Positions 37,013-55,047 of a stretch of DNA of 64,000 nucleotides are shown piece by piece; the stretch's first letter is position 1; every line of letters starts with the position of its first letter. The notes beneath the pieces were generated by a model. That model was not told where the DNA came from. It did no database searches and worked only from the letters and a program-made list of their open reading frames with translations. The stretch is from an uncultured Candidatus Saccharibacteria bacterium. Its GTDB lineage: Bacteria; Patescibacteriota; Minisyncoccia; Phycocordibacterales; UBA1006. Location: positions 185,867 to 249,866 of the forward strand of contig CAZROP010000001.1 in assembly GCA_964601935.1 (NCBI GenBank). Reading direction: 5' to 3'. A program made the translations under genes and the position numbers.

Positions 37013-37069
37013 AGTATATTAAATTGTTAAGTTGATAATATGATAGAGAATTTACGTATTATTCTCTAT
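36783..37069. repeat. 287-bp perfect direct repeat (copy A) covering the pilin 5' coding region plus 57 nt upstream
   Basis: It is base-for-base identical to 37531-37817 by manual alignment. Confidence 0.9.
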
Positions 37070-37070
37070 C
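37042..37070 (-). promoter_or_regulatory. conserved palindrome upstream of each pilin gene (also at 37790-37817 and 38471-38497)
   Basis: (g)atagagaat-ttacgtatt-attctctat(c) lies 30-58 nt upstream of each pilin start codon. Confidence 0.5.
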
Positions 37071-37253
37071 ATGTAACAATCATATCAGTCATTACTAAGT
37101 TTTCATTATGAATAATTGGGTAAACTGTGGAGATCTAGTATGGGTATACGCACCAATTTAGTATGTGTGACATAGTGAGTACACTAGCTCTGGAAAATAC
37201 AAAGACCACTGTCGATTGACAGTGGTCTCGGTAAATACTAGTTATGTAACACA

Positions 37254-37760
37254 CTATGGACATTTCACAGTAGCTGGCGTCCCAGCTGCCGCGGCAATAG
37301 ATACTGTATAAGCTGTGGTCAGTGTAATCTGCTCATTAGACCCCGATGAATCAGCGCACCATGCTGTTAACCCTGCTGTTCCTCGTAGTGGTACCGCTGC
37401 AACCCAAGAAATCCCATTACTAACACATACACCCAGTGTTGTTGGTGCGCCAGTATTAGTTGCAGTACCGCTTGTATTGGCGGTTACTGTCGCGTCAGAT
37501 CTGTGTACCTTTGCTGCCGCTAATACCCCTTCATATGTCTTACTTGTAGTAGCACATACAGTTTGATAACCTGTTGTTGTTTCATCGTAAATAACTTCTG
37601 CCGAAGCTCTCACATTAGATATATTACCCTTGATCGCAGCATCAGCACCTTTCACACGCGCACTGTTTACTGAACCAATCACTACTGTTGCAAGAACACC
37701 AATGATGGCAATAACCACGAGAAGCTCTATCAGAGTAAAACCTCGTAATTTTATACTCAT
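37254..37760 (-). CDS. type IV pilin / pseudopilin-like protein (paralog 2)
   Basis: 168 aa. The first 76 residues are identical to paralog 1. Confidence 0.9.
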   Translation of the reverse strand: MSIKLRGFTLIELLVVIAIIGVLATVVIGSVNSARVKGADAAIKGNISNVRASAEVIYDETTTGYQTVCATTSKTYEGVLAAAKVHRSDATVTANTSGTATNTGAPTTLGVCVSNGISWVAAVPLRGTAGLTAWCADSSGSNEQITLTTAYTVSIAAAAGTPATVKCP

Positions 37761-37817
37761 AGTATATTAAATTGTTAAGTTGATAATATGATAGAGAATT
37801 TACGTATTATTCTCTAT
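37531..37817. repeat. 287-bp perfect direct repeat (copy B)
   Basis: It is identical to 36783-37069. Confidence 0.9.
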
Positions 37818-37933
37818 ATAGCTGTATAATAACAGACTTAATAACTGTTTATATTTAATTTTCTCGAACCCTGTGGAGATCTAGAACAATATAAAAACTA
37901 CTATCTGTCGATAGTAGTTTTTATTATTCATAC

Positions 37934-38431
37934 TTATGGACATTTCACGGTAGGAGGCGTCCCAGCTGCGGCGGCGATGGTTACACTACCAACAACGGCA
38001 GGTACTGATTTGTTAGACCCCGATGAATCAGCGCACCATGCAGTCGAATAGTTTGCTCCTTTGAGAGGAGAAACAGCAGCCCATGATACTCCATTACTAA
38101 CGCAAACAGCTAATATCCCTGATGCCGTATTTGCTGCTGCACCAGTTGTGTTGGATGCTACGGTTATAGTAGATCCGTGTACTTTCGCTGCGGCGAGAAC
38201 ACCTTCGTATCCTTTGCTGGTAGTAGCACATACACTCGTGTAATTACCTGTTTCATCATAAATAGTTTCTGCTGTAGTGCGTACATTCGATATATTCCCC
38301 TTGATAGCTGCGTCTGCTGCTTTTACTCTTGCACTGTTTACTGAACCAATCACTACTGTTGCAAGAACACCAATGATGGCAATAACCACGAGAAGCTCTA
38401 TCAGAGTAAAACCTCGTAATTTTATAATCAT
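37934..38431 (-). CDS. type IV pilin / pseudopilin-like protein (paralog 3)
   Basis: 165 aa with MIIKLRG|FTLIELLVVIAIIGVLATVVIGSVNSARVK. Confidence 0.9.
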   Translation of the reverse strand: MIIKLRGFTLIELLVVIAIIGVLATVVIGSVNSARVKAADAAIKGNISNVRTTAETIYDETGNYTSVCATTSKGYEGVLAAAKVHGSTITVASNTTGAAANTASGILAVCVSNGVSWAAVSPLKGANYSTAWCADSSGSNKSVPAVVGSVTIAAAAGTPPTVKCP

Positions 38432-39011: not shown

Positions 39012-39992
39012 ATGCTATACTATAGCCATATTATAGTTATGTCAAGTCATGCTGCTTTGCGCCAATTCTTGGAACATTTAGAAATCGAACGTGGTCGATC
39101 CTCGCTCACTCTGCGTAACTATGAACATTATTTGACCACACTGTTCAATGTGATGAAGATCGAGTCTGTGGCTCAGATCGATGCAGATGTTATTCGCGAG
39201 TTTCGGTTGTGGTTGAATCGTCAGCCAGGCGCACGAGCACGAGGTCAGACAGATTCTCTGATGAAACGACGCACTCAAAATTACTACCTCATCGCTCTGC
39301 GATCATTCCTACGGTATGCGATGAAACGGGGTTGGACGCAGTTTGCTCCTGACAATATCGAACTCGCCCGTGTCGGTGATCGTCACATTGATATGATATC
39401 TGCTGATGAGCTTTCCAGAATAATGTCATCATTTGATACGACTACTCGTTCAGGTGTTCGGGACCGAGCTATACTCGAACTCCTCTACTCGACCGGATTG
39501 CGTGTATCAGAATTGGTGTCACTAAACTGTGACCTGGATCTATCCCGCGATGAACTGTCGATTCGCGGTAAGGGTGACAAGGTGCGACTCGTATTCGTTT
39601 CACCAGATGCTCGCATATGGTTGAAAAAATACCTCGGACTTCGTGCCGATGCACAGGATGCTCTGTTCGTCGATGAGCGTGCCAGCGCCGCAGAGTCATC
39701 GGATCGCGAGGCACGCCTAACGCCTCGATCTGTGGAACGTATTGTCGCCGCCGCCGCGGTACGTGCTGGTATCGGAAAGAAGGTGACCCCACATATCATT
39801 CGTCATTCGTTCGCGACAGGTCTATTGGAAAATGGCGCGGACATTCGTTCGGTGCAGACACTGCTCGGTCATGCGCATATCGGGACAACGCAGATCTACA
39901 CGCATGTCACTGACAAACATCTAAAAGATGTATTCAAAAAATTTCACAAACCGACAGATACCTCGGTTACAGAAAAAACCTCTGACACGTAG
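39012..39992 (+). CDS. xerC: tyrosine site-specific recombinase, XerC/XerD family
   Basis: It has an SSLTLRNYEHYL core-binding domain and catalytic motifs LLYSTGLRVSEL, HIIRHSFAT and LLGHAHIGTTQIYTHV. The start may be 39039 (MSSHAAL). Confidence 0.9.
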   Translation: MLYYSHIIVMSSHAALRQFLEHLEIERGRSSLTLRNYEHYLTTLFNVMKIESVAQIDADVIREFRLWLNRQPGARARGQTDSLMKRRTQNYYLIALRSFLRYAMKRGWTQFAPDNIELARVGDRHIDMISADELSRIMSSFDTTTRSGVRDRAILELLYSTGLRVSELVSLNCDLDLSRDELSIRGKGDKVRLVFVSPDARIWLKKYLGLRADAQDALFVDERASAAESSDREARLTPRSVERIVAAAAVRAGIGKKVTPHIIRHSFATGLLENGADIRSVQTLLGHAHIGTTQIYTHVTDKHLKDVFKKFHKPTDTSVTEKTSDT

Positions 39993-41716: not shown

Positions 41717-41839
41717 GTGACGTTAGTGCTTTATGTGTGAATCAAATTTGTTTAGATATGAGTTTCACCATACCTTATTTATAGATTATGTCAAATTATT
41801 GAACCAGGATATATGGCTATCATGCTATACTGCATCCAT

Positions 41840-42742
41840 ATGAAATTTGTATCATGGAATGTGAACGGTCTGCGTGCCGTGACGAAAAAAGGATTCTTCC
41901 CCACCTACGTCGCGAGTGGAGAATATGATGTGATATTTCTAATGGAGACAAAATCAGAAATCGGTCAGCTATCTGATGAGGTAATATCGATTTCGGGATA
42001 CTCGTTCATGTTGCAGCCGAGTACCTACAAAAAAGGATACGCAGGTGTCGGCATGTATGTCCGCGATGGATTGTCGGCTGTGATCGAGACCGGATTTTCT
42101 CATGACTGTGCATTGCATGACGAGGAGCGCATTATGACTGTATCACTCGTACATCCTATTCACGGACGGATTGCGATCACAGGAGCATACTTCCCGAACG
42201 GTGCGCGCGGCAGTGTAAAGAGGGGTGGAGATGTAGAGACTAATAATCGAGTTTCTGATGAGTCAAACCCCCTCCCGACCTCCCCCTTTTCTAGTGGGAG
42301 GAGCTTGAAAACAGCTGCAGACTTCGGATCGAACCTGGAATACAAGCTGGCATTTTTTACCGAGTTTCAGAATCACATGGAGCACCTGGAGAAATCCCAT
42401 GATCATGTACTAGTTTGTGGTGACATCAATATTGCACACCACCCTATTGATCTGGCACGACCCGAGTCGAACAAAAATTCTGTAGGATTCTTGCCGGTCG
42501 AGCGTGCGCGACTAGATGCATGGCATAGCGATGGGTGGAGAGATATATGGCGAGAACTGCATAGCGATGAAGTGGTATACAGTTGGTGGGATGTTATCAG
42601 TGGTGCGCGTGCACGCAATGTTGGATGGCGTATTGATGCATGGTGGATGCGGCAGTCATCACTACCGATCATCGACGAGATCAGATACGATACAGAACAA
42701 ATGGGTTCGGATCATTGTCCTGTGGTGGTAATTCTGAAATAA
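41840..42742 (+). CDS. xth: exodeoxyribonuclease III (Xth/ExoA family) carrying a ~40-codon internal insertion
   Basis: It has an MKFVSWNVNGLRA start, LMETK, GDINIAH and GSDHCPVVV. The insertion lies between FPNG and LEYKL (nt 42212-42331). Confidence 0.9.
   Translation: MKFVSWNVNGLRAVTKKGFFPTYVASGEYDVIFLMETKSEIGQLSDEVISISGYSFMLQPSTYKKGYAGVGMYVRDGLSAVIETGFSHDCALHDEERIMTVSLVHPIHGRIAITGAYFPNGARGSVKRGGDVETNNRVSDESNPLPTSPFSSGRSLKTAADFGSNLEYKLAFFTEFQNHMEHLEKSHDHVLVCGDINIAHHPIDLARPESNKNSVGFLPVERARLDAWHSDGWRDIWRELHSDEVVYSWWDVISGARARNVGWRIDAWWMRQSSLPIIDEIRYDTEQMGSDHCPVVVILK
42264..42303 (+). repeat. solo copy of the DUF559-cassette terminal repeat inside the xth coding sequence
   Basis: caaaccccctcccgacctcccccttttctagtgggaggag matches caaaccccacctcaatcctcccctttgctaggggaggaa (57236-57275) at roughly three quarters of positions by eye. 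Confidence 0.6.
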
Positions 42743-42762
42743 CGGAGATTCATTTCAGCAGA

Positions 42763-42799
42763 AAAACCACCCGCACTGCGTAGCAATGCGGGTGGTTTT
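42763..42799 (+). terminator. intrinsic terminator after xth
   Basis: aaaaccacccgca / 11-nt loop / tgcgggtggtttt followed by gtttt. Confidence 0.75.
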
Positions 42800-42901
42800 G
42801 TTTTAGCCATTAAAGTCTTCATTATCTAACCCAAAATGAAATCCGCCAGCATCAGAATGATGTGGCGGATCCGAACGGACTAGTATGAAAAAAATCTTTC
42901 G

Positions 42902-43120
42902 TTAGTTCGATTCCGGAAGATCTGGAATCTTTTTGTTTTTGAAGCCATCAATCTTTTCTAGGGAATCTTGTCTCTGATCCAGCTCTTTTTGGTGAAGAGC
43001 TTTTTCGATGGCGTTCTTCTCCTCCGTTGTCTTTTTGATCTGCTGGTCATAATAAGGGTCGCAGCTTCCGAGGACTAAGATACAAACTGCCAGAAATACA
43101 ACAGTAGTAAGTTACTTCAT
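42902..43120 (-). pseudogene. small lipoprotein gene interrupted by an in-frame TAA at codon 3
   Basis: The minus-strand frame reads atg aag TAA ctt act... = MK*LTTVVFLAVCILVLGSCDPYYDQQ...PESN*. 69 codons remain open after the stop, and there is a lipobox-like LGSC. Confidence 0.55.
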
Positions 43121-43286
43121 GATGTTTATGTTTTGTATTAAACTAGCATTCATCTGAGTATTTGTCAAATACTATAGTTGCTGTATATGTTCGTGGGTCC
43201 TAGGGTCTATCACAAGAAAAAATCCGTGAACAGTCAAATTGACTGTTCACGGACTTTCAAGGATTTACTGTATCAGGCTTGCTTAA

Positions 43287-44021
43287 TCAGAAAGGATACT
43301 CTTGCAAGAGGCTATCCGGGTTACTCACTAATAAGGCCGTTTGCTCTGCCGACAACTGTGTCAGAGTATACCAGGCTACTTTTTCCTGCCAGGTGCTTCC
43401 TTTCGCCTTATCCTGTATTGCAAACTTTATGCGGTAGTAGTTATCGGCTTCTGGTTGTGTGTCCGAGTCGCCGAGTGCTGCAATCAGAAATTCATCAAGA
43501 GTAGAAAAATATTCCATGCTTTGAGTTGATATAACCCAGGTGAAAGATTCACATGGGTTTTTTGTCAACCCATTGAGTGGTGTAAAGTGCGGCATATAGA
43601 GCGCCTCTTCACTGGTCTGTAATAAGTACCAGGTGTTGTAGTATAAGTAATTCTCGAAAGAATCCACGTACACCCTACCTGTTAATGCGATTTCTGTAAA
43701 AGGTACTTCAGGTGTTTCAACATCGTTCCAGTCCTTAACATATAACGGTGTCGTTGGTGTACCTATATACACGGGTACATTACTGTATCGTACATAGTAT
43801 ACCGCCCCTGTATCTTCTATCGTTGTATTCAGCGAGTCTCGTAATGAGAGCGCAACGCTATCCATCATTTCTGCAAAGCCTTTGACTGTTGATGATTGAT
43901 ATTGATAGTCGGTGGGTTTTGCGATACTTCCTAATCCAAGAAAGATGAAAAATAGAAGTAAACAAATACCCGAGAACTGTACAAACCCGGATGGGTCTGC
44001 GATGTTAAAGAGCTTACTCAT
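43287..44021 (-). CDS. membrane-anchored hypothetical protein
   Basis: 244-aa ORF with an N-terminal TM (GICLLLFFIFLGLGSI). Confidence 0.5.
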   Translation of the reverse strand: MSKLFNIADPSGFVQFSGICLLLFFIFLGLGSIAKPTDYQYQSSTVKGFAEMMDSVALSLRDSLNTTIEDTGAVYYVRYSNVPVYIGTPTTPLYVKDWNDVETPEVPFTEIALTGRVYVDSFENYLYYNTWYLLQTSEEALYMPHFTPLNGLTKNPCESFTWVISTQSMEYFSTLDEFLIAALGDSDTQPEADNYYRIKFAIQDKAKGSTWQEKVAWYTLTQLSAEQTALLVSNPDSLLQEYPF

Positions 44022-44170
44022 TGTTTTTCGATTTTTATATATGAATGATTATATACTACTCTCCATATAAAAATGTTGTTGTCAATTGTGTATTCCTACC
44101 CGAAAGCTCGTATATTGACTATTCCCTACTATCATAGTAGTGTTTGCGCAAACAAATAAAATATTTTGCC

Positions 44171-44680
44171 ATGAAGAAGAATATCTTGTATACCGTTGCG
44201 ATGGTGCTCGGGTTGAGTACATTCACAGTGCCGCTGGCGGCACAAACTGAAATGATTTCCGTTAATGGATTGGAGCCCACTCCATCCTATGTAGCCGCGG
44301 GCTACATGATGCAGGGTGTTGGTAACCCGCTGGTTCCCCGGATTTACCACACAACCCAGGGAGATACTGAATTTATCGCCAATATTCGCTGGAACTCTGA
44401 GGCTCAAGAGTGGAGCCTTGTACTGTATCAAAGCTGCCTCGGGAACCTGCGCCTGGACAAGGGTGAAAGCCCAGCAGATGGGTGCTGGTCTATCCCGTTG
44501 GCGGCGTTCTACATGTCGCAGCGAGCGGATGGCGGGCTGCATTATGCCGCTCAATCGGGAGCGGTACCCTGGAACTCCGTAGAGATAACCGCGCTAGTTC
44601 TCCAGTTCTGGATCGAGCTTTCCCAGTACCAGTGGAACGGTAGCCCATCAGTTATACACGCACCATTCGCGGGTGGTTAG
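44171..44680 (+). CDS. secreted hypothetical protein
   Basis: It has the signal MKKNILYTVAMVLGLSTFTVPLAA-Q. The ORF is open from 44144. Confidence 0.5.
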   Translation: MKKNILYTVAMVLGLSTFTVPLAAQTEMISVNGLEPTPSYVAAGYMMQGVGNPLVPRIYHTTQGDTEFIANIRWNSEAQEWSLVLYQSCLGNLRLDKGESPADGCWSIPLAAFYMSQRADGGLHYAAQSGAVPWNSVEITALVLQFWIELSQYQWNGSPSVIHAPFAGG

Positions 44681-44868
44681 CGGGTAGATGCAATTATGGG
44701 TTATCTCTAAAACCTTTGTTGAAGTATTGGTTATTGTACGATATGTACACAAACCAGGAATCAACAAGGGTTTTTTGATTTGTCAGGGTAGATAGGGAAA
44801 TTAAGTACATATACTTGACCTAATAGACATTATATGTTAATATAGATTCAAACAAAAAAACTAAATCA

Positions 44869-45312
44869 ATGAAGAAAGTAAATTTTGTTCTTGCGATCGT
44901 TGCATTTGTAACTCTGGCTAATCCACTTGCTGGGCAAATGGACCAGTATAATTTTTTAACCACTGCTGCGTTGGCCACGGTTACTTTGGCTGATACTGCA
45001 GAAACAGGAATGAATATTGTGAAAGTATGGCCCTACAACAACCCGTTTCAGGTTGAGAAAACCACTATCCGTCATGAGATGGGGACAGAAGTTTGGTACG
45101 AAGTCCAATGTTACTTCTGGCTGTTCTACCGCGGAAAAGTTCGCGTGGAGTGGAACGTCAGTGTAGCAATCCTACCTTGGAATGCTAACAGCGACGGAGG
45201 CAGGTTATTCAGTACCAATCTGGATGCCGGAGTTGGGAGAAAACTCACTAATAAAGAGAAGAAGCTAATCTCGCAAGGTATCCTGTATCTCCTTATCGAA
45301 AGCAAGATGTAA
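44869..45312 (+). CDS. secreted hypothetical protein
   Basis: 147 aa with the signal MKKVNFVLAIVAFVTLANPLAG-Q. Confidence 0.5.
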   Translation: MKKVNFVLAIVAFVTLANPLAGQMDQYNFLTTAALATVTLADTAETGMNIVKVWPYNNPFQVEKTTIRHEMGTEVWYEVQCYFWLFYRGKVRVEWNVSVAILPWNANSDGGRLFSTNLDAGVGRKLTNKEKKLISQGILYLLIESKM

Positions 45313-45468
45313 TGGTCCTGTAATTTTGATAAACTGTTAATCCTATACACCGCATGTATGCGTGTCACTGGGATTAACAGTTTTCATTTTGTTGGGACTT
45401 CCCTGTTTGATATGTTCTGTCTTCTGTATGTAGTATAAAACCCCTGATTAATCAGGGGTTGTTCGTTA

Positions 45469-45918
45469 TTATTGTTGAAAGGTTTGGATATTCTTGCCTA
45501 TGCTTGCCTGATCCTCGTTGTGTAACTGTATTGTCTGGACGAGCTGTTCCAGGGCATCAATACGTTCAATAAAACCAGGAATAACCTCACGGACTTCGGA
45601 CAGGTGTCCTAACCTGTCTGCCTCGCTGAGAGCATCCAGGTCCACTGATAACTGAACCAGTATATTCTGCCAGTCTTGCAGTGATCCATTGAGTTGTTGT
45701 GCTCTGCGTTCATAGTTTCCTGGATGAGAGAAGAAATCCAGTACCAGACCCATGCGCTGAGACATGTTCTGTTCATAGTTTGCTGACTTATACGTGGCAG
45801 ACTCGTCCAGTCGTTGGAGGATGTTCGCCATACGCTGTCGGCATTTTGTTACAGATTCTGCAAATTGTGCCATTGCTTGGTCAAATAAAGATATCTCGCT
45901 CGGTTGTGATTCGGTCAT
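45469..45918 (-). CDS. hypothetical helical protein
   Basis: 149-aa ORF flanked by terminator hairpins (45438-45460). Confidence 0.45.
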   Translation of the reverse strand: MTESQPSEISLFDQAMAQFAESVTKCRQRMANILQRLDESATYKSANYEQNMSQRMGLVLDFFSHPGNYERRAQQLNGSLQDWQNILVQLSVDLDALSEADRLGHLSEVREVIPGFIERIDALEQLVQTIQLHNEDQASIGKNIQTFQQ

Positions 45919-46047
45919 ATACCAGTATTGTTACATGATGATTATACAGGTGCAAGCAGTCTGGATTGTGGGTGATTATTCGGCCGATCTGGTCCAAAAC
46001 AAAACCACCCCTTGCGGAGTGGTCTGTTTGATTTCATCGATAAATGG

Positions 46048-46443
46048 TTAGTAACCACCACCGAATCCACCACTGTTCTGGTCGTTACCATAGTCACGGC
46101 GAGGAGCACGCTGGCCACCACCGAATCCACCACGGTCACCTCCACCAAAGCCTCCTGAACGTCCACCTCCACCGTTAAAATCACGGCGCTGTGGGCGATC
46201 GGTCATAGGACGAGCCTCGTTGACCATAATATTGCGTCCCATGAATTCTGTATTATTCAAGGCAGCTATTGCAGCGTTTGCTTCTGCATCAGGCATTTCC
46301 ACGAATGCGATACCGCGTGAACGGGTTGGATTATCGCGCTCCATGATGATGGTTGCTGTTTCTACAGTACCGAATGCGCTGAATAATTCGCGAAGATCTT
46401 CTTCACGAGACTGCCAAGAAAGGTTGCCTACGTATATTTTCAT
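46048..46443 (-). CDS. RRM-type RNA-binding protein with a Gly/Arg-rich tail
   Basis: RNP2 MKIYVGNL, RNP1 RGIAFVEM and a C-terminal GGGGRSGGFGGGDRGGFGGG. Confidence 0.92.
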   Translation of the reverse strand: MKIYVGNLSWQSREEDLRELFSAFGTVETATIIMERDNPTRSRGIAFVEMPDAEANAAIAALNNTEFMGRNIMVNEARPMTDRPQRRDFNGGGGRSGGFGGGDRGGFGGGQRAPRRDYGNDQNSGGFGGGY

Positions 46444-46948
46444 AGAAAATGAGGGAAATTAGGTTATATAGTTCAGAGAGCTATAGTTCCTAGATTCCAA
46501 GGGTTGTACTGACTGTTTCATGCGAAACGAGTCGATTTGTTTTTATAATCGACATGTTGTCTCGCGTTACTTGTTACCTGTCTCTTTACCCAGTACTGAC
46601 GTCATGACTCGCCTGTACCAATAAACTCACATTCTCAAAAACCAGCCAGAGATACTATGTCGCGCATAGTGTATCATGCGTGGGGTGTAAAAGCAAAGTT
46701 ATTGACCTTTTTTCTTCCGTCTTCCCAGGCGTAGCGATAGCGGAGATCTGGGATACAGGATTAGAAAAACTCACTGGAGTGTTGTAAGTATGCTGAATCC
46801 TGGATCCCGGGTTGACTATTCATATAGTCGGACCTTGTCCTTCCTTATGAATATGTCCCCCGGGAAGACAGGAAGATTTACGCAAAGCCTTGCGCATTCG
46901 TATAATATGGGTTATTGTGAATTAAATTTCATTAAAATCCACACGGTT

Positions 46949-47263
46949 ATGAGAAAGTTATACATTTTTTTCTGTACCAAATTTGTTAGTTTGACTACGT
47001 GGGCGATGTGCTGGCATTATATTTATTCAGGAGCTGCCCTTCCTGTGAAGAAGGTGGTCAAGACACACTCCTATCACAAAAGGTTAAAGCGTTGGTGGCA
47101 TTGTCGAAAGCTACGATTGCGTATTTGGGTCGACAAAGTGATCTGGGGTAAGGAAGAGGAGATTATACTTGGTGCCGACAGTTCGGTACATCAGGTGCGT
47201 CCTCCAGATGGTTATACTCAAATAAATAAGGATAATTTCCCCCGCCCCGCATTACCTGATTGA
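46949..47263 (+). CDS. doubtful small basic protein
   Basis: The ORF has an MRKLYIFFCTKFVSL start and is followed by a hairpin plus T-run (47289-47350). Its W/C/H/K-rich composition is atypical. Confidence 0.25.
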   Translation: MRKLYIFFCTKFVSLTTWAMCWHYIYSGAALPVKKVVKTHSYHKRLKRWWHCRKLRLRIWVDKVIWGKEEEIILGADSSVHQVRPPDGYTQINKDNFPRPALPD

Positions 47264-47574
47264 AGGACGCTAGTGTTAGAACTAAAAGACCTGATTTTAC
47301 CGAACATATCGATATATTCGATTGTTGCAGTAAGATCAGGTTTTTCTTTTGTTGGATATAAAAATACCCGATAATCTTTATGATTACGGGTGGTTTTATG
47401 ACTAAAGCTAGTTTCTAAAAAAGTGCAGGGTCTTTCCTGGAGGTATGAGGAGAGGACCAGGAGACCCTGCGCGAGTATAGCTTGTTATTCAGTAGTGTAC
47501 TCCGTATAGATAATTATGCAAGGGAGTATTAAAAAACTGCTATGTCCTTTCAGATCAGATATAGCAGTAGTTGG

Positions 47575-47648
47575 TCCAGAGGGTCCTCCCCGAATTCCCC
47601 TAATCTGTAACTTGTGAGGGAGGCCCTTGTTCCCTCTGGATTTTTTTT
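47575..47648 (+). terminator. nested hairpin followed by T8 (plus-strand terminator-like)
   Basis: tccagaggg(47575-83)/ccctctgga(47632-40) encloses cctccc/gggagg, then tttttttt follows. Confidence 0.55.
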
Positions 47649-47909
47649 GAAAAGTCGGCACCCAGCGCCACAGCGACCCCTGTACCACGTTGTTGTTCTG
47701 GGTCAGGGCACTAGGTGCTCAACTTTTCTATTTGTTCATAGTGTTGAGCCCTACACTACTAGTATTTATTGCAAAGTCAACAGTAACCAGTCATCCTGAT
47801 CATTTTGGAATAATAAAAAACTGCTGTCATCTCGGAGAGAAACAGCAGCTTGTTGCGGCGATCATTCATCATGACCCCCTAATATAACCCCAAAAAACCA
47901 AATGAAAAC

Positions 47910-47950
47910 TTCTTTCGGTGCTGTAACTAAACGCTACGGCACTGAAAGAA
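47910..47950 (-). terminator. 16-bp hairpin plus T-rich tail on the minus strand
   Basis: ttctttcggtgctgta pairs with tacggcactgaaagaa (2 G-U pairs). The minus strand continues gttttcatttggtttttt. Confidence 0.6.
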
Positions 47951-47990
47951 TGATTTTCTATAAAAAATATGCTCTCTGGAATTTACACCT

Positions 47991-48018
47991 AGTATATACC
48001 CTCTTGATTCATTGTCAA
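47991..48018 (-). promoter_or_regulatory. sigma70-like promoter on the minus strand
   Basis: TTGACA (48018-48013), 16-nt spacer, TATACT (47996-47991). It sits ~35 nt upstream of the 47950-47910 hairpin. Confidence 0.45.
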
Positions 48019-48502
48019 GAACGCCTGTTCATATTCAGGGTATCTTTGTAAGTATTGTCAAAATAAAAAGTCCCAGAATGGTTACAACGGGCGCTGTGTC
48101 ATCCTCTCTCACGGAGATACAAAAAACCGCTCGCAGATTTTGTACCGAAGGAAAACTGTCCTAGGGGCTAAAAATGGAGCGGCTTCACATGAAACAAATT
48201 TACGTCTTGAGGGTTTCGGTATTAAAGAGAGGTCGACCACTGCTGCCAGTATCGACCTCCCGAAAAACACCTAAAACCCTATTTTTTTCTGTATCATTCG
48301 GTTCGAACGGATTAGCATAATTATATGCTTATAATCCTACATCGTCAATATAATTCAAATAAAAAGGCTGACTCGAAAACATAAAAAGAATTCGGGTCAG
48401 ACTGTGTATGAGAGGATAATCAACGAATGAAATAATAAAAAATCCCCCTTTTGCTGGCCCACTCTACACCCGATTGCGGATTTGTCCAATAGGTATTAAA
48501 AA

Positions 48503-48534
48503 ACGGGAGCCACTGGTGATCTTTGTGGCCCCGT
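48503..48534 (-). terminator. intrinsic terminator on the minus strand
   Basis: acgggagccac pairs with gtggccccgt. On the minus strand T6 follows (plus-strand A6 at 48498-48503). Confidence 0.6.
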
Positions 48535-48673
48535 TCAGGGTTGTTGCGCCTCTGGTAGAGTCCGCAACGGGTATATGTGGAGTGAGCTCGTTTTCTTTGA
48601 ATTAGGTCGGGACCTGAATACTGTCCCGACCAGTATATTCAAAAAACAGCAGGTATAGGGTCAATTGAGTAAT

Positions 48674-48701
48674 AGTATAGAGACATGTTCCGGTTTGTCA
48701 A
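48674..48701 (-). promoter_or_regulatory. sigma70-like promoter on the minus strand
   Basis: TTGACA (48701-48696), 16-nt spacer, TATACT (48679-48674). Confidence 0.45.
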
Positions 48702-48852
48702 CCCTAGACGGTAATAAAAACCCCTGCAAGGTCACCCATGGGGTAACTACTGCAAGGATCGAGGTTTCGCCTTCTGAAGCTATAAAAGTGTAGTCAGATT
48801 TCCAGTATACTGAAAATATAATGCGTGACTATTGTGGTGGGGTTATAAAAAA

Positions 48853-48897
48853 CCGCTTCATCGGGAGTCTCGGTCGCTAAAACGAGTGATGAAGCGG
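48853..48897 (-). terminator. intrinsic terminator on the minus strand
   Basis: ccgcttcatc pairs with gatgaagcgg (10 bp). On the minus strand T6 follows (plus-strand A6 at 48847-48852). Confidence 0.6.
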
Positions 48898-49064
48898 AGT
48901 AATATCTGGGCGCATGGCATTAGGTGGGGCGCCCAGAACAAAAAACGTATGACGATCTAATAGTGAGGCGTAGCCTACAGGAATTATCGGGCATTGTCAA
49001 GAATTGCAGATGTTAATCGGGTACACATTGTCCTATAACGTCGTATTGTCAAACACCGTGTCTC

Positions 49065-50576
49065 TTAGGAGACACGGTGTTTTTGTCGTAACAGGGCTAT
49101 TTCTTCTGCCTCGCGAATTTCGCGCTCTCGTTTCCCTGCTTCACCGAGGTTTTTCAGTTCGCTGTCGGATAGATTTTGTAGTTCCGTCACACGTGTACCC
49201 AGATATTCACGTGTATTACGAGTATCGTCATCCAAGACCTCTTCTAGGAGCGTGTTCAGTATCCATCCCAGACGTGGCCCTGGGTTCACATGAAACTCGT
49301 TCATCAGATCGTTGCCGTTCAGCGCCAGCATGGTGACCGACAGTGGACTGCGCAGTGCCTCCTCTATCATTGCCTCATATTTACGTAGTCGATAGGGTTC
49401 TGCGTCCTTTTTGCCCATTCCTATGCGATCGCTGCGCCGTACACGCATGAGATCCCATATCAAATCCTCACCTACGTTGACTATCATACGGCGTACGGCA
49501 GATAGTGTGATAGTTTCTGTATCCGAAAAGAACATATGATATCGGACAAGCTTCTCTACTTTGTCCGATAGATCTCGAGGATATTTCATGCGCTCCATTA
49601 TTTTGCGTACCATTTTGGCGCCAATAACCTCGTGTCCATAAAATGTCCATATTCCAGCCTGTTCATCGCGTCTACGGCTGCGTGGTTTTCCTATATCGTG
49701 GAATAGCGCAGCCAGGCACACGTGCAGCGGCCATTCCTGCCATACCGCATTCTGACAGGCATTCAAATTATGAGTAAATACATCATAGATATGGCTTCGG
49801 GATTGCTCGCAACCATGGCCTTCTAGCAATTCAGGGAGAATAATGGCGAGCAATCCAGTTTCATGTGCAACCTCTATCCCCTTTTTGGGCTCCGCAGACA
49901 TAACCATTTTGGTGAATTCATCACGAATACGTTCTATAGAGACGGTCTTTGTTTCGTCCATGAGTTGTTTCATAGCGTATGCGGTCTCTGGTTCAATGGT
50001 AAATCCGAGCTGGGCTGAAAATCGTATCGCTCGCATAATTCGTAATGGGTCTTCTGAAAAACGCTCAAACGGACTGCCTATGGTGCGAATAGTCTTGGAT
50101 AATATGTCAGAAACTCCGCCTGTATTGTCGTGTAACAGATGTTTCACTGTGTCATACACTAATGCATTCATCGTAAAGTCTCGCCGAGAGAGATCATCCA
50201 TCAGATTGGTACTAAAAGACACATTATCAGGATGACGTTTATCGCTATACTCTGACTCTGTCCTGTATGGAGTTGCATGAATTTCGCGTAGTCCGGACGA
50301 CTGTTCGTTATCAGGGAATATAAAAGACACAGTACCAAAGGGGTTTTCGTATACGACACGAATACTAGAAGATTCTGCTACAGCTATCATCTGATCGGGT
50401 GTGGCAGAGGTGGTGATATCCCAGTCGTGAGGATCACGATTCATCAGCAGGTCGCGCACGCAGCCACCAACGAGAAATGCCTCGTGTCCATTAGATTGTA
50501 GTAATTCTATAACACGTGCTGGTTCTGTAGGGATATCGAATTGAATTGCAACCGAATTGGTATCAGGAGTAGTCAT
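49065..50576 (-). CDS. cca: CCA-adding enzyme / tRNA nucleotidyltransferase with an HD domain
   Basis: 503 aa with LVGGCVRDLLMNRDPHDWDITT, RRDFTMNAL and the HD motif LFHDIGK. A hairpin (49053-49080) overlaps the stop codon. Confidence 0.9.
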   Translation of the reverse strand: MTTPDTNSVAIQFDIPTEPARVIELLQSNGHEAFLVGGCVRDLLMNRDPHDWDITTSATPDQMIAVAESSSIRVVYENPFGTVSFIFPDNEQSSGLREIHATPYRTESEYSDKRHPDNVSFSTNLMDDLSRRDFTMNALVYDTVKHLLHDNTGGVSDILSKTIRTIGSPFERFSEDPLRIMRAIRFSAQLGFTIEPETAYAMKQLMDETKTVSIERIRDEFTKMVMSAEPKKGIEVAHETGLLAIILPELLEGHGCEQSRSHIYDVFTHNLNACQNAVWQEWPLHVCLAALFHDIGKPRSRRRDEQAGIWTFYGHEVIGAKMVRKIMERMKYPRDLSDKVEKLVRYHMFFSDTETITLSAVRRMIVNVGEDLIWDLMRVRRSDRIGMGKKDAEPYRLRKYEAMIEEALRSPLSVTMLALNGNDLMNEFHVNPGPRLGWILNTLLEEVLDDDTRNTREYLGTRVTELQNLSDSELKNLGEAGKREREIREAEEIALLRQKHRVS

Positions 50577-50732
50577 AATGTCCTTTTAGTATAGGTGAAT
50601 TATATCATGGGTAGAGTAGGTTGTCAGGAAGGTGTGCAGGGCATGACTATTGTTGTAGTCTGCACATGGATTGGTGTCATTGTGTGGATACAATCACCAG
50701 GAATATGGACAACTAGAGTAAAATAGTGGTAT

Positions 50733-52802
50733 ATGAGTGAACGCACGCCCGGAGAAGAAATCCTAGAAAACGCCGAGAATACTCCAGAAAGATTAATAAA
50801 TGCTCATATATTGAACGATATAGAGTTACAGTATGCATTACAGTTATTCCCTGTAGAAACTCTAGAATCTGTGCAAGAGAAAAGTCACGAAAAGATAGTA
50901 GATGAGCGAGTAACAATGCTGAACCGTTCGTGCATGTATGACGAGGTCAAGCCAGGAGAGGAGGGTATGCATCGACCAGAGCGTGCATATACTCCATTTT
51001 CGAAACTACGGTTCATAGCACCTCCTACTGAAGAGGTTGCAAATGAACTGCGATCACTGGGGGTGGTTCATGTGAAACAGTCTCTCGAGGCAACGAGACA
51101 GGCCCAAGATCTAGCACAATTTACCGAAATGGTCGAATGGTACGAAACACAAGAGCAGGCAAAACAGGAATGTTTAGAAGTTCTTCGTTCTTTACAAGAG
51201 AGCGCACAAGATGATTTACATGAGCTGGCTTTGCTCTTTCAGAAGATAGAGACTTCTTCTTCGGAGGCTGGTCACATGAATTACGAGCACGCGCAGAAAT
51301 GGGCGTACCAACTACTGATGGGAGGGCCTCTCACGAACAGTGTACAGTCGAGCGGAGGAGGACTGCGCGATACCTTCGAGGCATACATTTCTAATGTAGA
51401 GAACCTAAGGCAGCCGGCATACTACACCGATTTGTTGGTTGAAATACAAAATCACCAACGTGCTATAGAAATACTGAAGAGTTTGCCAGCGGCTACAGAC
51501 CCAGGATTGCAGGAGAAGTATAGAATCTGGCGGCAGATGAATACTCTTTTCAGAGGAGATGTAGAGGATAAGGTCTATACGTTCATGACCGAACAGGTAG
51601 GATATAATCAGACAAAACAGGGTATCCACATCCACAATCGTGTACCCAAAAGCTATCAACCTACACGTGGTCAGTATTCTCCTAAATACGGGTACAATGA
51701 TGCAAAGAATAAGCAACAAGAACTAATGCCTCGGGTGGAGCTTGCTCTGGAGAGCGCAACTCGATTCGTCGATACGACAGTCGCTCGTGCGCAGATGGAG
51801 TACGAAGTACTGCATCTGCCCGCGACAGAAACAAAATACGTTTCACCTGATGACGCGGCGAAGTATCTGAAACACGAGAAAGACAAGCGAGTAATAGAAG
51901 CACGAAAAGCAGCTGAGTTATTAGGTCGTAGACCAGAGACGTTTGCGCGGACTGTGGTTGATGCGGGGAACTTTACAGGAGAAGTCAGCTTTACTCTGAG
52001 GCCAAGAGATATGTTACCTGATATACATGCTGAGATACAAGAGCTAGAGAGACAAATCGTGGATTTGGGGATCGAGATAGGTAAATTGACGAAATCGGCT
52101 GATTCCATGAAAGATTCATTGGAAAAGGGTAGGGCGTATGATAGTTCGTCTAAACTTTATAAATTGGTTGTGTCACCTCCTATTGTTAACACAACCTGGA
52201 CTGAGCATGGCAACAAGCTTGATGATATAAAAAACTTAACATCAAAAAAGACAGACATAGAGCAAAATCTCGAGGTATTGCAAGCAGAATTAGAAACACA
52301 ATCACGACACCAATCTAATATATCGTTTGACTGGGAAAATGAGTGTATAAATATGATTACTAGAGGTGAATACCTGGGTTATGATATGAAACAGGGCGAA
52401 GTATCGGATATAGGGGCAGATTTTGATGTGGTGGCGTTCAAAAGATCACTATATAATCGTCTGTCTGGTGGTAGTAAGTCTATTTCAGAATTAGAACTGC
52501 GTAATTTGCAGAATGATATTGTTACATTCCTAGGCTTGGTATCCCGATGGGGGTTGTCGCCTGCAGAACAAACAGCATTAGACCATTATGATTCTGTGTT
52601 GCAGCGAGTCAGTAAAGGCGAATCGCGTACTCCAGAATGGTTACAGGGCGTGCCATTTGATGCGAAACAGGTGTACGAACATGCACTCGATGTTGTAATG
52701 CCTGCACAGGAAGCAGCTTTGGGTGTTGTAGATGGAAATGTATCTGTTGAAGTAGTGGCTGACGCGTATATGCGGTTGTACGGCGATAATAATGAAAAGT
52801 AA
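50733..52802 (+). CDS. large soluble hypothetical protein (coiled-coil-rich ORFan)
   Basis: 689-aa uninterrupted ORF with no TM segment and no recognised motif. It has its own terminator at 52825-52861. Confidence 0.55.
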   Translation: MSERTPGEEILENAENTPERLINAHILNDIELQYALQLFPVETLESVQEKSHEKIVDERVTMLNRSCMYDEVKPGEEGMHRPERAYTPFSKLRFIAPPTEEVANELRSLGVVHVKQSLEATRQAQDLAQFTEMVEWYETQEQAKQECLEVLRSLQESAQDDLHELALLFQKIETSSSEAGHMNYEHAQKWAYQLLMGGPLTNSVQSSGGGLRDTFEAYISNVENLRQPAYYTDLLVEIQNHQRAIEILKSLPAATDPGLQEKYRIWRQMNTLFRGDVEDKVYTFMTEQVGYNQTKQGIHIHNRVPKSYQPTRGQYSPKYGYNDAKNKQQELMPRVELALESATRFVDTTVARAQMEYEVLHLPATETKYVSPDDAAKYLKHEKDKRVIEARKAAELLGRRPETFARTVVDAGNFTGEVSFTLRPRDMLPDIHAEIQELERQIVDLGIEIGKLTKSADSMKDSLEKGRAYDSSSKLYKLVVSPPIVNTTWTEHGNKLDDIKNLTSKKTDIEQNLEVLQAELETQSRHQSNISFDWENECINMITRGEYLGYDMKQGEVSDIGADFDVVAFKRSLYNRLSGGSKSISELELRNLQNDIVTFLGLVSRWGLSPAEQTALDHYDSVLQRVSKGESRTPEWLQGVPFDAKQVYEHALDVVMPAQEAALGVVDGNVSVEVVADAYMRLYGDNNEK

Positions 52803-52824
52803 GTTTGCAGTCTTTAGCAAGACA

Positions 52825-52861
52825 GAACAAAACCCGCTGCCAAGGGCAGCGGGTTTTGTTC
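52825..52861 (+). terminator. intrinsic terminator after the 689-aa gene
   Basis: gaacaaaacccgctgcc / aag / ggcagcgggttttgttc forms a perfect 17-bp stem. Confidence 0.8.
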
Positions 52862-52968
52862 TACGTGAAACCTGTATCGGTGTCATAGTACAGTGGATAA
52901 TGCCTGAAATTACAAGCAATTGATTGATATACTGGGTTAGACATCGGTATGCGCCGATCTTGTAGTGT

Positions 52969-55047
52969 ATGACATCACCAGAAAATACTGTTCCACAAAG
53001 AGATCCGATTCCAGGTGTAGGACATCCGGACGGGCTTTTGCCTGAGGAACAGGATTGGTGGAACGCACTACAGCGAGAAAAAGCGTCTCTAGCGCAAAAT
53101 GAGGGTATGGTATTGTCGCCTGTGATAGCACAATCTTCGCGTAGTTGGGATTCAGTTCAGATCCCGAAAGGTCGTAGAGAAGGCGGGCGATCTGCATCTA
53201 CTCTCGAAACATTGCGAACCAAAGGGGTTCATTCAGGCTCTGCGCTGGAACAAAAGATCTTAAATTCAGTTAGCGCTCCTACGAGTCCTATTACCTGGGA
53301 AGCAGTTGTTGCGACAAGAGCTCGATTAACTCCTCGATTAGAACAGGCTTTGGCAGCAGCAGATCCGCACCTGGCGTATGTATACGAGAGGTCACTGTCT
53401 CGTTCAGCCGCGAATATTACCTCGAACGATACATCAGCACGAACTGCAAAAATCATACCAATAGGCCAACCTCTAGGGGTAAGTTTGCGTGAGGCGGCGC
53501 TTGTAGATGACCAGGATGGTATCGAGATGCCTCAGATGCAGATTGCTTCGGTAGCAGCATCTGCCGATGTACCCGATGTAGAAACAGTCGGCGAGCCTGT
53601 TGCACCAGCGGCAGTAGCACCAGAGGTACATTCTGATGAGCCTATTTCTCTGCAGGAATTGGTTGATAGGGTAAACAGAAATGTATCAACTGTACAGGAG
53701 TCTCTGGATCTTGCAATAGAGCCTGTTGCACCAGCAATAGAAGAAGACCATAACTGGGCAGAACAGGTGCATCTATCAACTGAACGGTATTCTAGTACAC
53801 TAGAATCTGCGTACAATGAAGCATATTTGAATCTTCATAGAGGGGCGCATTGCAGTTGGTTATCGAATTCTACACATAGAGAAACATTACTCAATCAGGA
53901 GTGTCAGATAGCGCGTCGTGAATTGGTACTGGCTCTCGTGAATCAACGCCGGCAGCAGAATAACGGCGTACTCAGTCGTGCTGACCTGATTCAGATAGAA
54001 CAGAGCGTGGTACAGCAAGAGCGTATCACATTGGATACTCTTGGACAGCAGTATGCGCAACACGCAGACATGCGCATGGTTCGTAATGTTCCAGAATTGG
54101 CAAATATTGCGCGTGCTCGCGGTGCAGCAGTGATGGAACGAGGCAGACAAGGTGTCACACGTGTAACAGGTATGTTGTCGAGATTATGGACTAGAACTGC
54201 AGGGCAGAGTGATACCGTACAGAGAGCACAAGAATCCATGACGGCACACAGTCGTCGCGTGCGCGGTTGGGTGGATAGGCGATTGGGATCAGAGCGAGTT
54301 GCACAGATGCAGCATGTAGCGGTGCGTATTGCTGTACCTACTGTATTTACCATTGCTACGGGTGGAGCACTGCTGCCGGTGATAGCAGGTGCAACAGTGG
54401 CTACGGCTACGGGTGCTGGTATTGATGCCGGATATCGTGCAGTCACTAGGTCGCAGAATCGTGCCGACCAGAGCATACCCATTGCTCCTGAAAATGTAGA
54501 CGCAATGTTAGTTGATGCGCAACAGGAAGCGGCAATTAGGAATCGGGAGCGACGTATTGCGCGCTGGGTGTCTACCATTACATCCTCTCTCGTGGGAATA
54601 GTAACAGGGCATTGGACAGCAGATGCGATGCAGGCTCACACTAATACGCCAACATCTGGGCCTGCACCGAAACCAACGCAGCCTATTATCGAAAAACCAC
54701 CCATCCCATTTATAGAACACACTGTTGCTATTCAAAATGGGTCAGGCGAAGGGTTTACTCAGGCGGTTAATCGCTTATTATCAGTGACGCCAACAGATCA
54801 AGTGCCAGCATTGATTACTGACTTCGCACGAGTACATAATGTACCTATCGTTAACGGTCATTATCAGATGACTCCAGAACAGGCGCGAGCGTTTGCCGAA
54901 CAGGTACGTGCAATCGATACATTCGGTCGTTCAATCATTATGCAGCCGGGTGATACAGTAGGATTCGATGCGGAAGGACAGCTGGTACATACACATGCAG
55001 GAGTGAGCCGCGCAGTAACAGGCGCATTACGCGGGAAATGGATGTAG
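52969..55047 (+). CDS. large membrane protein of unknown function (same architecture as the 1047-aa protein)
   Basis: 692 aa. It has RRVRGWVDRRL, a Gly/Ala-rich TM hairpin (IAVPTVFTIATGGALLPVIAGATVATATGAGIDAG), a second TM (WVSTITSSLVGIVTGHW) and a C-terminal domain. Confidence 0.65.
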   Translation: MTSPENTVPQRDPIPGVGHPDGLLPEEQDWWNALQREKASLAQNEGMVLSPVIAQSSRSWDSVQIPKGRREGGRSASTLETLRTKGVHSGSALEQKILNSVSAPTSPITWEAVVATRARLTPRLEQALAAADPHLAYVYERSLSRSAANITSNDTSARTAKIIPIGQPLGVSLREAALVDDQDGIEMPQMQIASVAASADVPDVETVGEPVAPAAVAPEVHSDEPISLQELVDRVNRNVSTVQESLDLAIEPVAPAIEEDHNWAEQVHLSTERYSSTLESAYNEAYLNLHRGAHCSWLSNSTHRETLLNQECQIARRELVLALVNQRRQQNNGVLSRADLIQIEQSVVQQERITLDTLGQQYAQHADMRMVRNVPELANIARARGAAVMERGRQGVTRVTGMLSRLWTRTAGQSDTVQRAQESMTAHSRRVRGWVDRRLGSERVAQMQHVAVRIAVPTVFTIATGGALLPVIAGATVATATGAGIDAGYRAVTRSQNRADQSIPIAPENVDAMLVDAQQEAAIRNRERRIARWVSTITSSLVGIVTGHWTADAMQAHTNTPTSGPAPKPTQPIIEKPPIPFIEHTVAIQNGSGEGFTQAVNRLLSVTPTDQVPALITDFARVHNVPIVNGHYQMTPEQARAFAEQVRAIDTFGRSIIMQPGDTVGFDAEGQLVHTHAGVSRAVTGALRGKWM

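Follow-up and report, generated by a model that had tools for sequence, protein, structure and literature searches.

A putative cluster of small RNA genes next to cca in a Candidatus Saccharibacteria genome, with one candidate seed RNA conserved in relatives and in phage contigs

The DNA analysed here, a stretch of 64,000 nucleotides (nt) from an uncultured Candidatus Saccharibacteria bacterium (contig CAZROP010000001.1) that we call the window, contains at positions 47264-49064 an island poor in open reading frames (ORFs), adjoining cca, the gene for the CCA-adding enzyme. This island probably comprises some eight small non-coding RNA (sRNA) genes, each transcribed independently and clustered head to tail on the minus strand. 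One of them, designated unit 6, has a core that recurs in relatives from the Candidate Phyla Radiation (CPR) and in phage contigs: on balance we take it to be a conserved trans-acting antisense sRNA composed of a seed plus a terminator, the other units being lineage-specific members of the same general design. An earlier, sequence-only reading of this DNA had proposed a dense array of independent structured units. The enrichment of signals, their alternation, the folding of the units, the lack of coding signal and the conservation of one unit agree with that proposal, while the other units gain no comparative support; several of the proposed unit boundaries and two of the hairpin assignments were wrong.

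The evidence begins with transcription signals. A scan for hairpins ending no more than 2 nt from a run of at least five Ts finds nine terminators on the minus strand of the island (47366-91, 47425-70, 47537-67, 47821-48, 48127-82, 48367-402, 48504-33, 48722-57 and 48853-97), to be compared with 0.79 +/- 0.85, and a maximum of three, in 200 dinucleotide-preserving shuffles. Under stricter conditions (T6 and a free energy, dG, of -9 kcal/mol or below) the figures are 6 and 0.23. The terminator geometry claimed for the minus strand is thereby upheld, and its runs of five or more Ts number 18, with 5.9 expected. These sites have the GC-rich stem-loop and U-run by which intrinsic (Rho-independent) terminators are recognised, although their loops, at 9-44 nt, are larger than those of gene terminators elsewhere in the window. 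In its loose form the hairpin and T-run scan can mislead: an equally dense 'cluster' at another locus (L044) proved a false positive, lying inside coding DNA antisense to purine-rich genes, so that the shuffle control is the relevant comparison. Most of the hairpins folded by hand in the sequence-only reading were recovered by the scan with dG values of -9 to -26 kcal/mol (47425-70, 47537-67, 47575-640, 47821-48, 48127-82, 48210-80, 48367-402, 48504-33, 48853-97 and 49054-79) or are present in the folds of the units (47910-50, 48906-36 and 48605-31), and three more were found at 47290-340, 47366-91 and 48722-57.

Promoters show a similar concentration. On both strands of the 64 kb only six sites match TTGACA-N16-18-TATAAT at 11 of 12 positions, and half of them lie on the minus strand of the island (48701, 48348 and 48018); at least one of the remainder stands directly upstream of a gene, cca (50627-50599). 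Two of the four promoters previously claimed, at 48018-47991 and 48701-48674, are among the 11/12 matches, while TTGGAC-17-TAGAGT reaches only 9/12 and TTGACA-17-TAGGCT fails the scan; the 11/12 promoter TTGACG-17-TATAAT at 48348-48320 had been missed. Overall, the sigma70-type promoters upstream of the units comprise three scoring 11/12, two scoring 9/12 and three, read by hand, that score only 7-9/12 and fail the per-hexamer rule. When the minus strand is read through, promoters and terminators alternate, and four scan-supported promoters start 8-15 nt past the preceding T-run.

Every unit, over lengths of 60-215 nt, folds better than its own shuffles (z-scores of -2.7 to -7.6), five of them clearly better as minus-strand than as plus-strand RNA. 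Words enriched in the island, TTGACAA (five copies) and GTTTTTT[AG] (eight copies), correspond to promoter and terminator signals only; TTGACAAT occurs four times in the island and five times in the whole window. The repeat search confirmed the recurring -35 contexts described earlier, and it also bore out the view that this is not a repeat array: only short promoter and terminator motifs are repeated, at irregular spacing. Two independent Logan assemblies match the window at 100% identity throughout 45001-51000, and the island is therefore not an assembly artefact.

Conservation singles out unit 6 (47815..48018, minus strand; as with the other units, its RNA is a prediction). Its promoter TTGACA-16-TATACT (48018-47991, 11/12) would give an RNA of ~170 nt (~47984-47815) made up of a 5' hairpin (47950-47910), the core GUUUUCAUUUGGUUUUUUGGGGUU (47909-47886), a 38-nt insert specific to the window, and a terminator (47848-47821) followed by T6 (47820-47815). 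Sensitive blastn of the window against L136, a locus on a 423-kb Joint Genome Institute (JGI) contig, gave this 24-nt core, at 100% identity, as the sole match from the island (L136 7788-7811), and GUUUUCAUUUGGUUUUUUGGGGUU is likewise identical in nucleotides 1-24 of a second relative, L137; in both comparisons it stands in otherwise unalignable DNA. The order of elements in L136 is that of the window, namely a sigma70 promoter (there a perfect 12/12, TTGACA-16-TATAAT), a hairpin, GUUUUCAUUUGGUUUUUUGGGGUU, and a terminator hairpin with U6, while both flanking hairpins differ entirely in sequence. In L137, whose RRM protein is 85% identical over the aligned part, the 24-mer and terminator lie 1.2 kb upstream of the RRM gene. 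Given this layout in the two relatives, the pieces on either side of the 24-mer in the window form one unit of ~170 nt running from promoter 48018 to terminator 47848-47821, not the 90-nt unit first supposed.

A covariance model (R1) was built from L136, L137 and 39 copies in IMG/VR, leaving the window copy out. With this model the window copy obtains 41.6 bits (E 9e-9), compared with 65 bits for L136 and 60 bits for L137; a further, diverged copy, lying beside cca in the distantly related CPR genome L035, reaches 21.9 bits (E 0.003). The L035 copy (4679-4744, minus strand) keeps the seed part UUUGGUUUUUUGGGGU identical at 16/16 positions, in a 748-nt ORF-free gap right after cca and on the opposite strand; the same region holds GUUUCAUGUG, a 10-mer also found in unit 5 of the window. 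A gene-finder call antisense to unit 6 (47902-48051, 49 amino acids) is not conserved. The opposite strand does open with ATGA exactly at the conservation boundary, but ORFs starting there are random in length (median 17.5 amino acids); a reverse-strand gene beginning in the 24-mer was accordingly rejected and the 49-residue call regarded as spurious. Conservation in relatives, proposed as a check on the array, is thus found for unit 6, with an invariant core and hairpins that change in sequence and keep their structure, and for no other unit of the island: none has a blastn match in L136 or L137, and single-stranded segments of unit 3 (an 18-mer), unit 4 (a 19-mer) and unit 8 (the 18-mer TCCTCTCCTCATACCTCC, spanning its loop) each gave 0 IMG/VR matches. 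L136 and L137 have only two to three orphan units near the RRM gene. We consider it very probable that unit 6 is a genuine and conserved gene for an sRNA.

The wider family lies in uncultured phage contigs. In IMG/VR the exact 24-mer occurs in 38 contigs and a 17-nt core in 73, about 60 of these being true members, with GC contents of 38-59%. Among 51 distinct copies the invariant part is the 20-nt UCAUUUGGUUUUUUGGGGU, the four bases before it being variable. A hairpin follows the core in all 51. In 45 of them it starts 1-11 nt past the core, has a dG of -11 to -23 kcal/mol and leads into a T-run; the remaining six have the hairpin without a T-run. The stems differ widely in sequence among copies, and a structure-blind MAFFT alignment has double changes at all eight consensus pairs. 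TAnnTTTG, the -7 box of the Bacteroidota housekeeping sigma factor, occurs within 150 nt upstream in 29/51 copies, against an expectation of about three. In eight copies it is no more than 14 nt away (4-11 nt upstream of the conserved core UCAUUUGG), so that a predicted RNA of ~60 nt would begin directly with the seed. Other phage copies resemble those of CPR genomes in having a 5' hairpin domain and a linker AAGAUU before the seed.

Terminase large subunit genes adjoin the element in 11 loci, and one such terminase has its best full-length matches, at ~30% identity, in Bacteroides and Phocaeicola phages. In two loci (L150 and L151) the element begins 1-2 nt past a full-length tRNA gene. The 24-mer is absent from the INPHARED collection of cultured phages and from PLSDB plasmids, Rfam 15 gave 0 matches at E<=0.1 on eleven family-carrying loci, and the motif strings have no occurrence in the searchable literature. 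Unit 6 defines an undescribed family of candidate sRNAs, with no counterpart in Rfam 15. The family falls within the known seed-plus-terminator kind of sRNA; what is unusual is its distribution over CPR chromosomes and phage contigs and, in the island, the tandem packing of unrelated units.

Its closest parallel is FopS of Bacteroides thetaiotaomicron, an sRNA of ~65-70 nt with a single-stranded 5' seed and a Rho-independent terminator, transcribed from canonical promoters, with 14 paralogues and an occurrence in a phage; FopS pairs around the start codons of susC-like mRNAs, which have no Shine-Dalgarno sequence, and its seed region is bound by the single-RRM protein RbpB (PMC11697453). TAnnTTTG-type promoters are termed sigma-ABfr promoters in the same paper (PMC11697453). 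As in FopS/GibS, a conserved single-stranded seed stands directly 5' of an intrinsic terminator of variable sequence, phage copies exist, and a short form of ~60-70 nt has a TAnnTTTG promoter: this architecture recurs in the unit 6 family as the hairpin and T-run of 45/51 copies and the box 4-11 nt upstream of eight. There are also differences. Copies in CPR genomes have an extra 5' hairpin and sigma70-type promoters; the FopS seed GUAUUAGAUUUAAGGUUAACAAA (the reverse complement of the published probe AWO-590, TTTGTTAACCTTAAATCTAATAC) is unrelated to UCAUUUGGUUUUUUGGGGU; the unit 6 motif strings are absent from the supplements of PMC11697453; and the family, found in CPR genomes and uncultured phage contigs, was not seen as a multicopy chromosomal family as far as it could be searched. 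Membership of FopS was consequently rejected, and the unit 6 family would work like FopS without belonging to it.

By this analogy the unit 6 RNA would comprise a variable 5' hairpin, the invariant single-stranded seed UCAUUUGGUUUUUUGGGGU and a variable intrinsic terminator, and the seed would pair with an A-rich translation initiation region of the form ...CCCCAAAAAACCAAAUGA..., devoid of a Shine-Dalgarno sequence, so blocking ribosome loading. The complement of the seed, ACCCCAAAAAACCAAAUGA, looks like just such a region, and the conserved stretch breaks off exactly where the complement of AUGA is reached, just beyond the complement of the start codon; from these two properties we infer that occlusion of the initiation region is the most likely action. 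Several of the other units are predicted to have unpaired UUUCAU or CU-rich stretches. The single-RRM protein encoded nearby is a plausible partner of the unit 6 RNA: its gene lies 1.2-2.2 kb downstream of the conserved unit in three CPR genomes (the window, L136 and L137), a synteny among close relatives only that suggests the association. To our knowledge, the CPR/Patescibacteria lineage lacks Hfq as a rule, and full-text literature searches found no reports of small RNAs in this group. The island supplies some eight candidate sRNAs with predicted ends, one of them conserved as strongly as a classic seed sRNA. Invariance of a 20-nt core across phage contigs and CPR chromosomes implies an equally invariant target or protein partner, and the family would extend to environmental phages and to another phylum a design of seed, terminator and RRM protein so far shown in gut Bacteroides. 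More speculatively, and with very little likelihood in our estimation, the seed RNA could be a horizontally mobile module common to Bacteroidota phages and CPR episymbionts, with which both silence one and the same conserved host initiation region ...CCCCAAAAAACCAAAUGA..., free of a Shine-Dalgarno sequence, the sRNA arsenal and RRM chaperone of the CPR bacterium acting on a Bacteroidota host cell and not on the CPR bacterium.

Other known systems are less close. DicF and 3'ETS-leuZ exemplify, respectively, phage- or prophage-borne seed sRNAs and sRNAs from tRNA 3' trailers. With these the family has in common a short RNA with a conserved pairing region on mobile elements, and the L150 and L151 copies stand right after a tRNA and use its terminator; there is no sequence similarity, and copies are distributed over CPR chromosomes as well as phage contigs whose promoters are of Bacteroidota type. 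Chromosomal sRNA clusters such as LhrC1-5, Qrr and those of pathogenicity islands likewise consist of adjacent small units that have individual promoters and terminators. Tandem clusters of that kind, however, consist mostly of paralogues, whereas the island units have no sequence in common beyond promoter and terminator signals, and lie in a reduced CPR genome; paralogy of the promoter regions was rejected as well, since they have only 11-12-nt motifs in common. TIGR-Tas systems occur in this lineage (PMC12045711), and CRISPR, TIGR and ToxI arrays resemble the island as dense non-coding arrays next to genes of unknown function, but each island unit has its own promoter and terminator, and the repeat search detected neither a repeat unit nor periodicity, by which a CRISPR, TIGR or tandem-repeat array was dismissed.

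The genomic setting, a Paceibacteria/Nomurabacteria-like CPR genome, bears on how the units should be regarded. cca (49065-50576, minus strand), whose best species-representative match is a Candidatus Nomurabacteria metagenome-assembled genome at 60% identity, belongs to a conserved frame, which in the distant relative L135 (cca 61% identical) reads dnaA, UPF0102, cca, Exo_endo_phos, XerC-like recombinase and S15. The window keeps this frame, with Exo_endo_phos at 41813-42742, the recombinase at 39012-39992 and S15 next, as in the gene calls of L048. The spacing between cca and Exo_endo_phos, an insertion hot spot, varies from 31 nt in L135 (11509-11540) through ~6.3 kb in the window (42743-49064) to ~10.5 kb in L136 (1075-11543), and in L001 too cca abuts Exo_endo_phos, the interval being missing. 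The extra 6.3 kb of the window consists of four ORFans, the RRM gene, an ORF for 104 amino acids and the island. L136, a closer relative found through its RRM protein (66% identity), has a cca 74% identical at the nucleotide level and the same frame, but its cca and RRM genes are separated by 9 kb in which ORFans, two GIY-YIG genes and a MazE/PIN pair are found; its cca (L136 1-1075) is called as two ORFs of 331 and 174 amino acids, which suggests a frameshift or sequencing error. The interval between cca and the RRM gene is thus a hypervariable hot spot of fast turnover, and the RRM gene lies inside the inserted block. Further comparisons yielded little: exact-protein look-ups for close relatives returned the same strain only, cca homologues at 80% and 74% identity lay on contigs shorter than 2.3 kb that end at the island, no gap of this kind follows cca in 47 GTDB loci at <=60% identity, and a metagenome scan with the RRM protein gave only matches at <=60% identity.

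Several observations tell against the island being a set of functional sRNA genes. All the units are known here as predicted transcripts, from sequence alone; seven of the eight have no detectable homologue anywhere searched; and three of the eight promoters fall below the scan criteria. The window copy of unit 6 is itself atypical, its 38-nt insert between seed and terminator carrying a Shine-Dalgarno-like AGGGGG and a 31-codon ORF. No unit 6 copy was found near 80 more distant RRM genes, the phage loci contain no RRM gene, and there was no convincing seed target in the 64-kb window or in ~1.9 Mb of fetched loci. In a hot spot, moreover, some units could be evolutionary debris. As to the units other than unit 6, it seems to us an even chance whether most of them function as sRNA genes or are products, of recent date and possibly transient, of a locus with fast turnover.

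The alternative that survives best, although we consider it unlikely, carries this last point further: only unit 6 would be functional, the rest being orphan promoters and terminators left at the hot spot by deleted small cassettes, which would have been of the sort now seen in this interval of L136 (ORFans, GIY-YIG and toxin-antitoxin genes). The contents of that interval, its absence from L135 and L001 and the lack of homologues for the seven other units all fit such a history, as does a neighbouring lipoprotein-like ORF with TAA at its third codon, suggestive of ongoing decay. Neutral remains, however, would not be expected to keep nine intact terminators, three 11/12 promoters and a strict alternation with junctions of 8-15 nt, nor to show strong folding z-scores in every unit. 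The units are also too short to be former genes, and no residual protein similarity was detected: tblastn of 73 six-frame stop-to-stop segments against ~0.8 Mb (fetched loci, mostly of CPR relatives, and the remainder of the window) produced no match with E below 0.01, by which pseudogenes, including the pseudogene debris that the sequence-only reading had named as a refutation, were dismissed.

It is considerably less probable that the 24-mer and its inverted repeat act at the DNA level, as a phage att core, an origin of transfer (oriT/nic) or a packaging site, with the island an integration hot spot. The position of the motif beside tRNA genes in L150 and L151 and beside terminase genes in 11 loci would suit such a role, as would the hypervariable interval and a tyrosine recombinase only 8 kb away. 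Yet the T-run after the inverted repeat is found on one strand only, in 45/51 copies, and host-type promoters lie upstream, sigma70 in CPR genomes and TAnnTTTG in phage contigs; the adjoining tRNAs are full-length, where an att site would be expected to show 3' fragments, and in relatives both the recombinase and the genes around it are conserved and chromosomal.

Slighter still is the case for very small proteins or leader peptides. It draws on the 31-codon ORF of unit 6 (47872-47777, after AGGGGG-N4-ATG) and on a GGGG-N3-ATG in L136 that, read by hand, opens 22 codons. Both these ORFs run through the terminator and they are unrelated in sequence, while most family members have no ATG past the core. 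Elsewhere in the island no unit contains a credible ORF: unit 3, as had been stated, has no ATG anywhere (48667-48497), and in the others the ORFs span no more than 1-20 codons and lack a Shine-Dalgarno sequence. To the earlier statement that no convincing ORF of 60 or more amino acids is present it should be added that three mechanical ORFs of 61-67 amino acids exist, none with any support. A type I toxin-antitoxin system was rejected in the absence of a small ORF combining a transmembrane-like sequence and a ribosome-binding site. Hardly more credible is the idea that the whole island forms one extended leader or insulator separating cca from the RRM gene, regulated through serial attenuators that are read through conditionally: all the terminators do face the RRM gene, downstream on the same strand, and the RRM leader is itself conserved, with a hairpin and U-run in L137, but near-consensus promoters restart transcription after almost every terminator, relatives that lack the array retain the RRM leader together with a unit of its own upstream, and unit 6 stands alone in phages.

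We therefore describe the island as a series of candidate sRNA units, all on the minus strand unless stated. Unit 1 (48846..49000) has a -35 element TTGACA (49000-48995) with a weak -10, TAGGCT (48977-48972), that fails the scan (3/6); its predicted RNA of ~120 nt (~48965-48847) includes a 5' hairpin (48936-48906) and a terminator (48897-48853, dG -17.5) followed by T6 (48852-48847). It folds with dG -34.8 (z -3.9) and has no plausible ORF and no homologue that we could find. The -35 of unit 2 (48716..48831) begins 15 nt past the T-run of unit 1: from TAGTCA-16-TATACT (48831-48804, 9/12) an RNA of ~80 nt (~48797-48716) is predicted, ending in a terminator at 48757-48722 (dG -19.1) with T5, and the fold z is -2.8 on the minus and -1.2 on the plus strand. 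For unit 3 (48498..48701), TTGACA-16-TATACT (48701-48674, 11/12) would yield ~170 nt (~48667-48498) with three hairpins, an unpaired CUCACUCCACAUAUACCC and a terminator at 48533-48504 before T6; z is -5.9 on the minus strand, against -2.3 on the plus. Unit 4 (48361..48489), whose -35 begins 8 nt past the T-run of unit 3, has the promoter TGGACA-16-TAGAGT (48488-48461, 9/12) and a predicted RNA of ~95 nt (~48454-48361; z -2.7) containing an unpaired U-rich/CU-rich region and a terminator at 48400-48368 with T5.

Unit 5 (48121..48348) follows TTGACG-17-TATAAT (48348-48320, 11/12); its predicted RNA of ~190 nt (~48313-48121) has a hairpin at 48280-48210, with T7 3' on the plus strand, and a terminator at 48182-48127 with T6. 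Folding favours the minus strand here (dG -69.7, z -5.3, 10 G-U pairs) over the plus strand (dG -53.8, two G-U pairs). Beyond unit 6, unit 7 (47531..47780) has a weak promoter, TTGACT-16-TAGTGT (47780-47753; 8/12, read by hand and below the scan threshold), and a predicted RNA of ~215 nt (~47746-47531) with three hairpins, including 47640-47575 (T8 3' on the plus strand), and a terminator at 47567-47537 with T6; the fold has dG -80.4, with z -6.5 on the minus and -3.7 on the plus strand. Unit 8 (47417..47521), from another weak promoter read by hand, TTGCAT-16-TACACT (47521-47494, 7/12), would give ~70 nt (~47487-47417) with a sole 14-bp hairpin (47470-47425, dG -23.3) whose CU-rich 16-nt loop is UCCUCUCCUCAUACCU, then T6; its fold z is -4.6. 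Finally, unit 9 (47360..47416), a hairpin at 47391-47366 with T5 (dG -10.6, z -4.7) and no promoter of its own, is either a back-up second terminator of unit 8 or a promoterless remnant.

The hairpins at 47575-47648 (unit 7) and 48210-48288 (unit 5) have their T8 and T7 3' on the plus strand only. No plus-strand promoter was found ahead of them, and their role may be to halt antisense transcription running on from the plus-strand gene 46949-47263. The pair TTTGACAATAC ... TTCTTGACAATG occurs twice, its members ~40-50 nt apart, upstream of units 1 and 6 (48993-49052 and 48011-48061, minus strand). The upstream member has no usable -10, and the pair could be a tandem promoter or a regulator-binding site common to the two units.

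On the minus strand the island is bounded upstream by a perfect 14-bp palindrome (49053..49080), which overlaps the cca stop codon and has T5 on the plus strand only; earlier counted in the array as hairpin 49053-80, it belongs to the cca terminator region. Towards the other end, and outside the array, lies a plus-strand neighbour (46877..47345) with promoter TTTACG-18-TATAAT (46877-46906), ORF 46949-47263 and the terminator hairpin 47290-47340 with T5 (dG -21.5). The ORF, called by the gene finder at 104 amino acids, has no Pfam or PHROG match and no family. It had been considered doubtful, but with its own promoter is probably a real gene. The downstream edge is the conserved 5' leader of ~200 nt (46444..46700, minus strand) of the RRM gene (46048-46443). 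This contains a hairpin and the near-invariant blocks UCUCUGGCU(A/G)GUUUUUG and CAAGUAACGCGAGACA..AUGUCGAUUA, aligned with L136 9690-10000 and L137 1000-1212 and seen also at L212 ~360-660; in L137 a U-run follows the hairpin. The leader has no Rfam match and may be an autoregulatory or attenuator element. Just upstream of it, L136 (9456-9690) and L212 (134-340) have a common orphan unit, absent from the window, with TTGACA-16-TAGTAT, a long hairpin with compensatory differences and a terminator.

Searches for known elements placed nothing in the island. At gathering score, Rfam 15 covariance models found five tRNAs only in the whole window, all outside the island, where even at E<=10 there were only chance matches far below that score; the Rfam check thus leaves the island without a known family, and ARAGORN agrees in rejecting tRNA and transfer-messenger RNA (tmRNA) genes. 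Phage or plasmid DNA was discounted for lack of blastn similarity to cultured phages or plasmids, and a prophage because neighbouring genes have no PHROG matches; the flanking ORFans have no Pfam or PHROG matches. An origin of replication was rejected, no match to the DnaA box TTATCCACA with at most one mismatch being present between 38558 and 50683; dnaN is located at 29248-30354, with the turn of the GC skew near 30 kb.

Several minor features were recorded nearby. Two adjoining ORFans of ~690 amino acids, acidic and coiled-coil-like (50733-55047, plus strand), diverge from cca and have no Pfam match above threshold and no PHROG match. The lipoprotein-like ORF 42904-43120 (minus strand), MK*LTTVVFLAVCILVLGSCDPYYDQQ...ESN, has a lipobox, the in-frame TAA at codon 3 and its own terminator (42795-42767), and is either a fresh pseudogene or a gene with an unusual start. 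An 18-20-nt element containing GGATCC and CCCGGG, AACCCGGGATCCAGGATTCA, lies at 46794-46813 (minus strand), inside a doubtful N-terminal extension of ORF 46790-47263, and is 100% identical in L136 (19841-19860) and L137 (883-900); similar elements occur in L212 (~90-110) and L213 (~270-320), with varying positions and orientations, and it could be a small mobile or regulatory element. Lastly, at 36512-38431 (minus strand) there are three tandem genes of ~165 amino acids with a prepilin N-terminal methylation motif, separated by bidirectional terminators (36366-94 and 37898-917).

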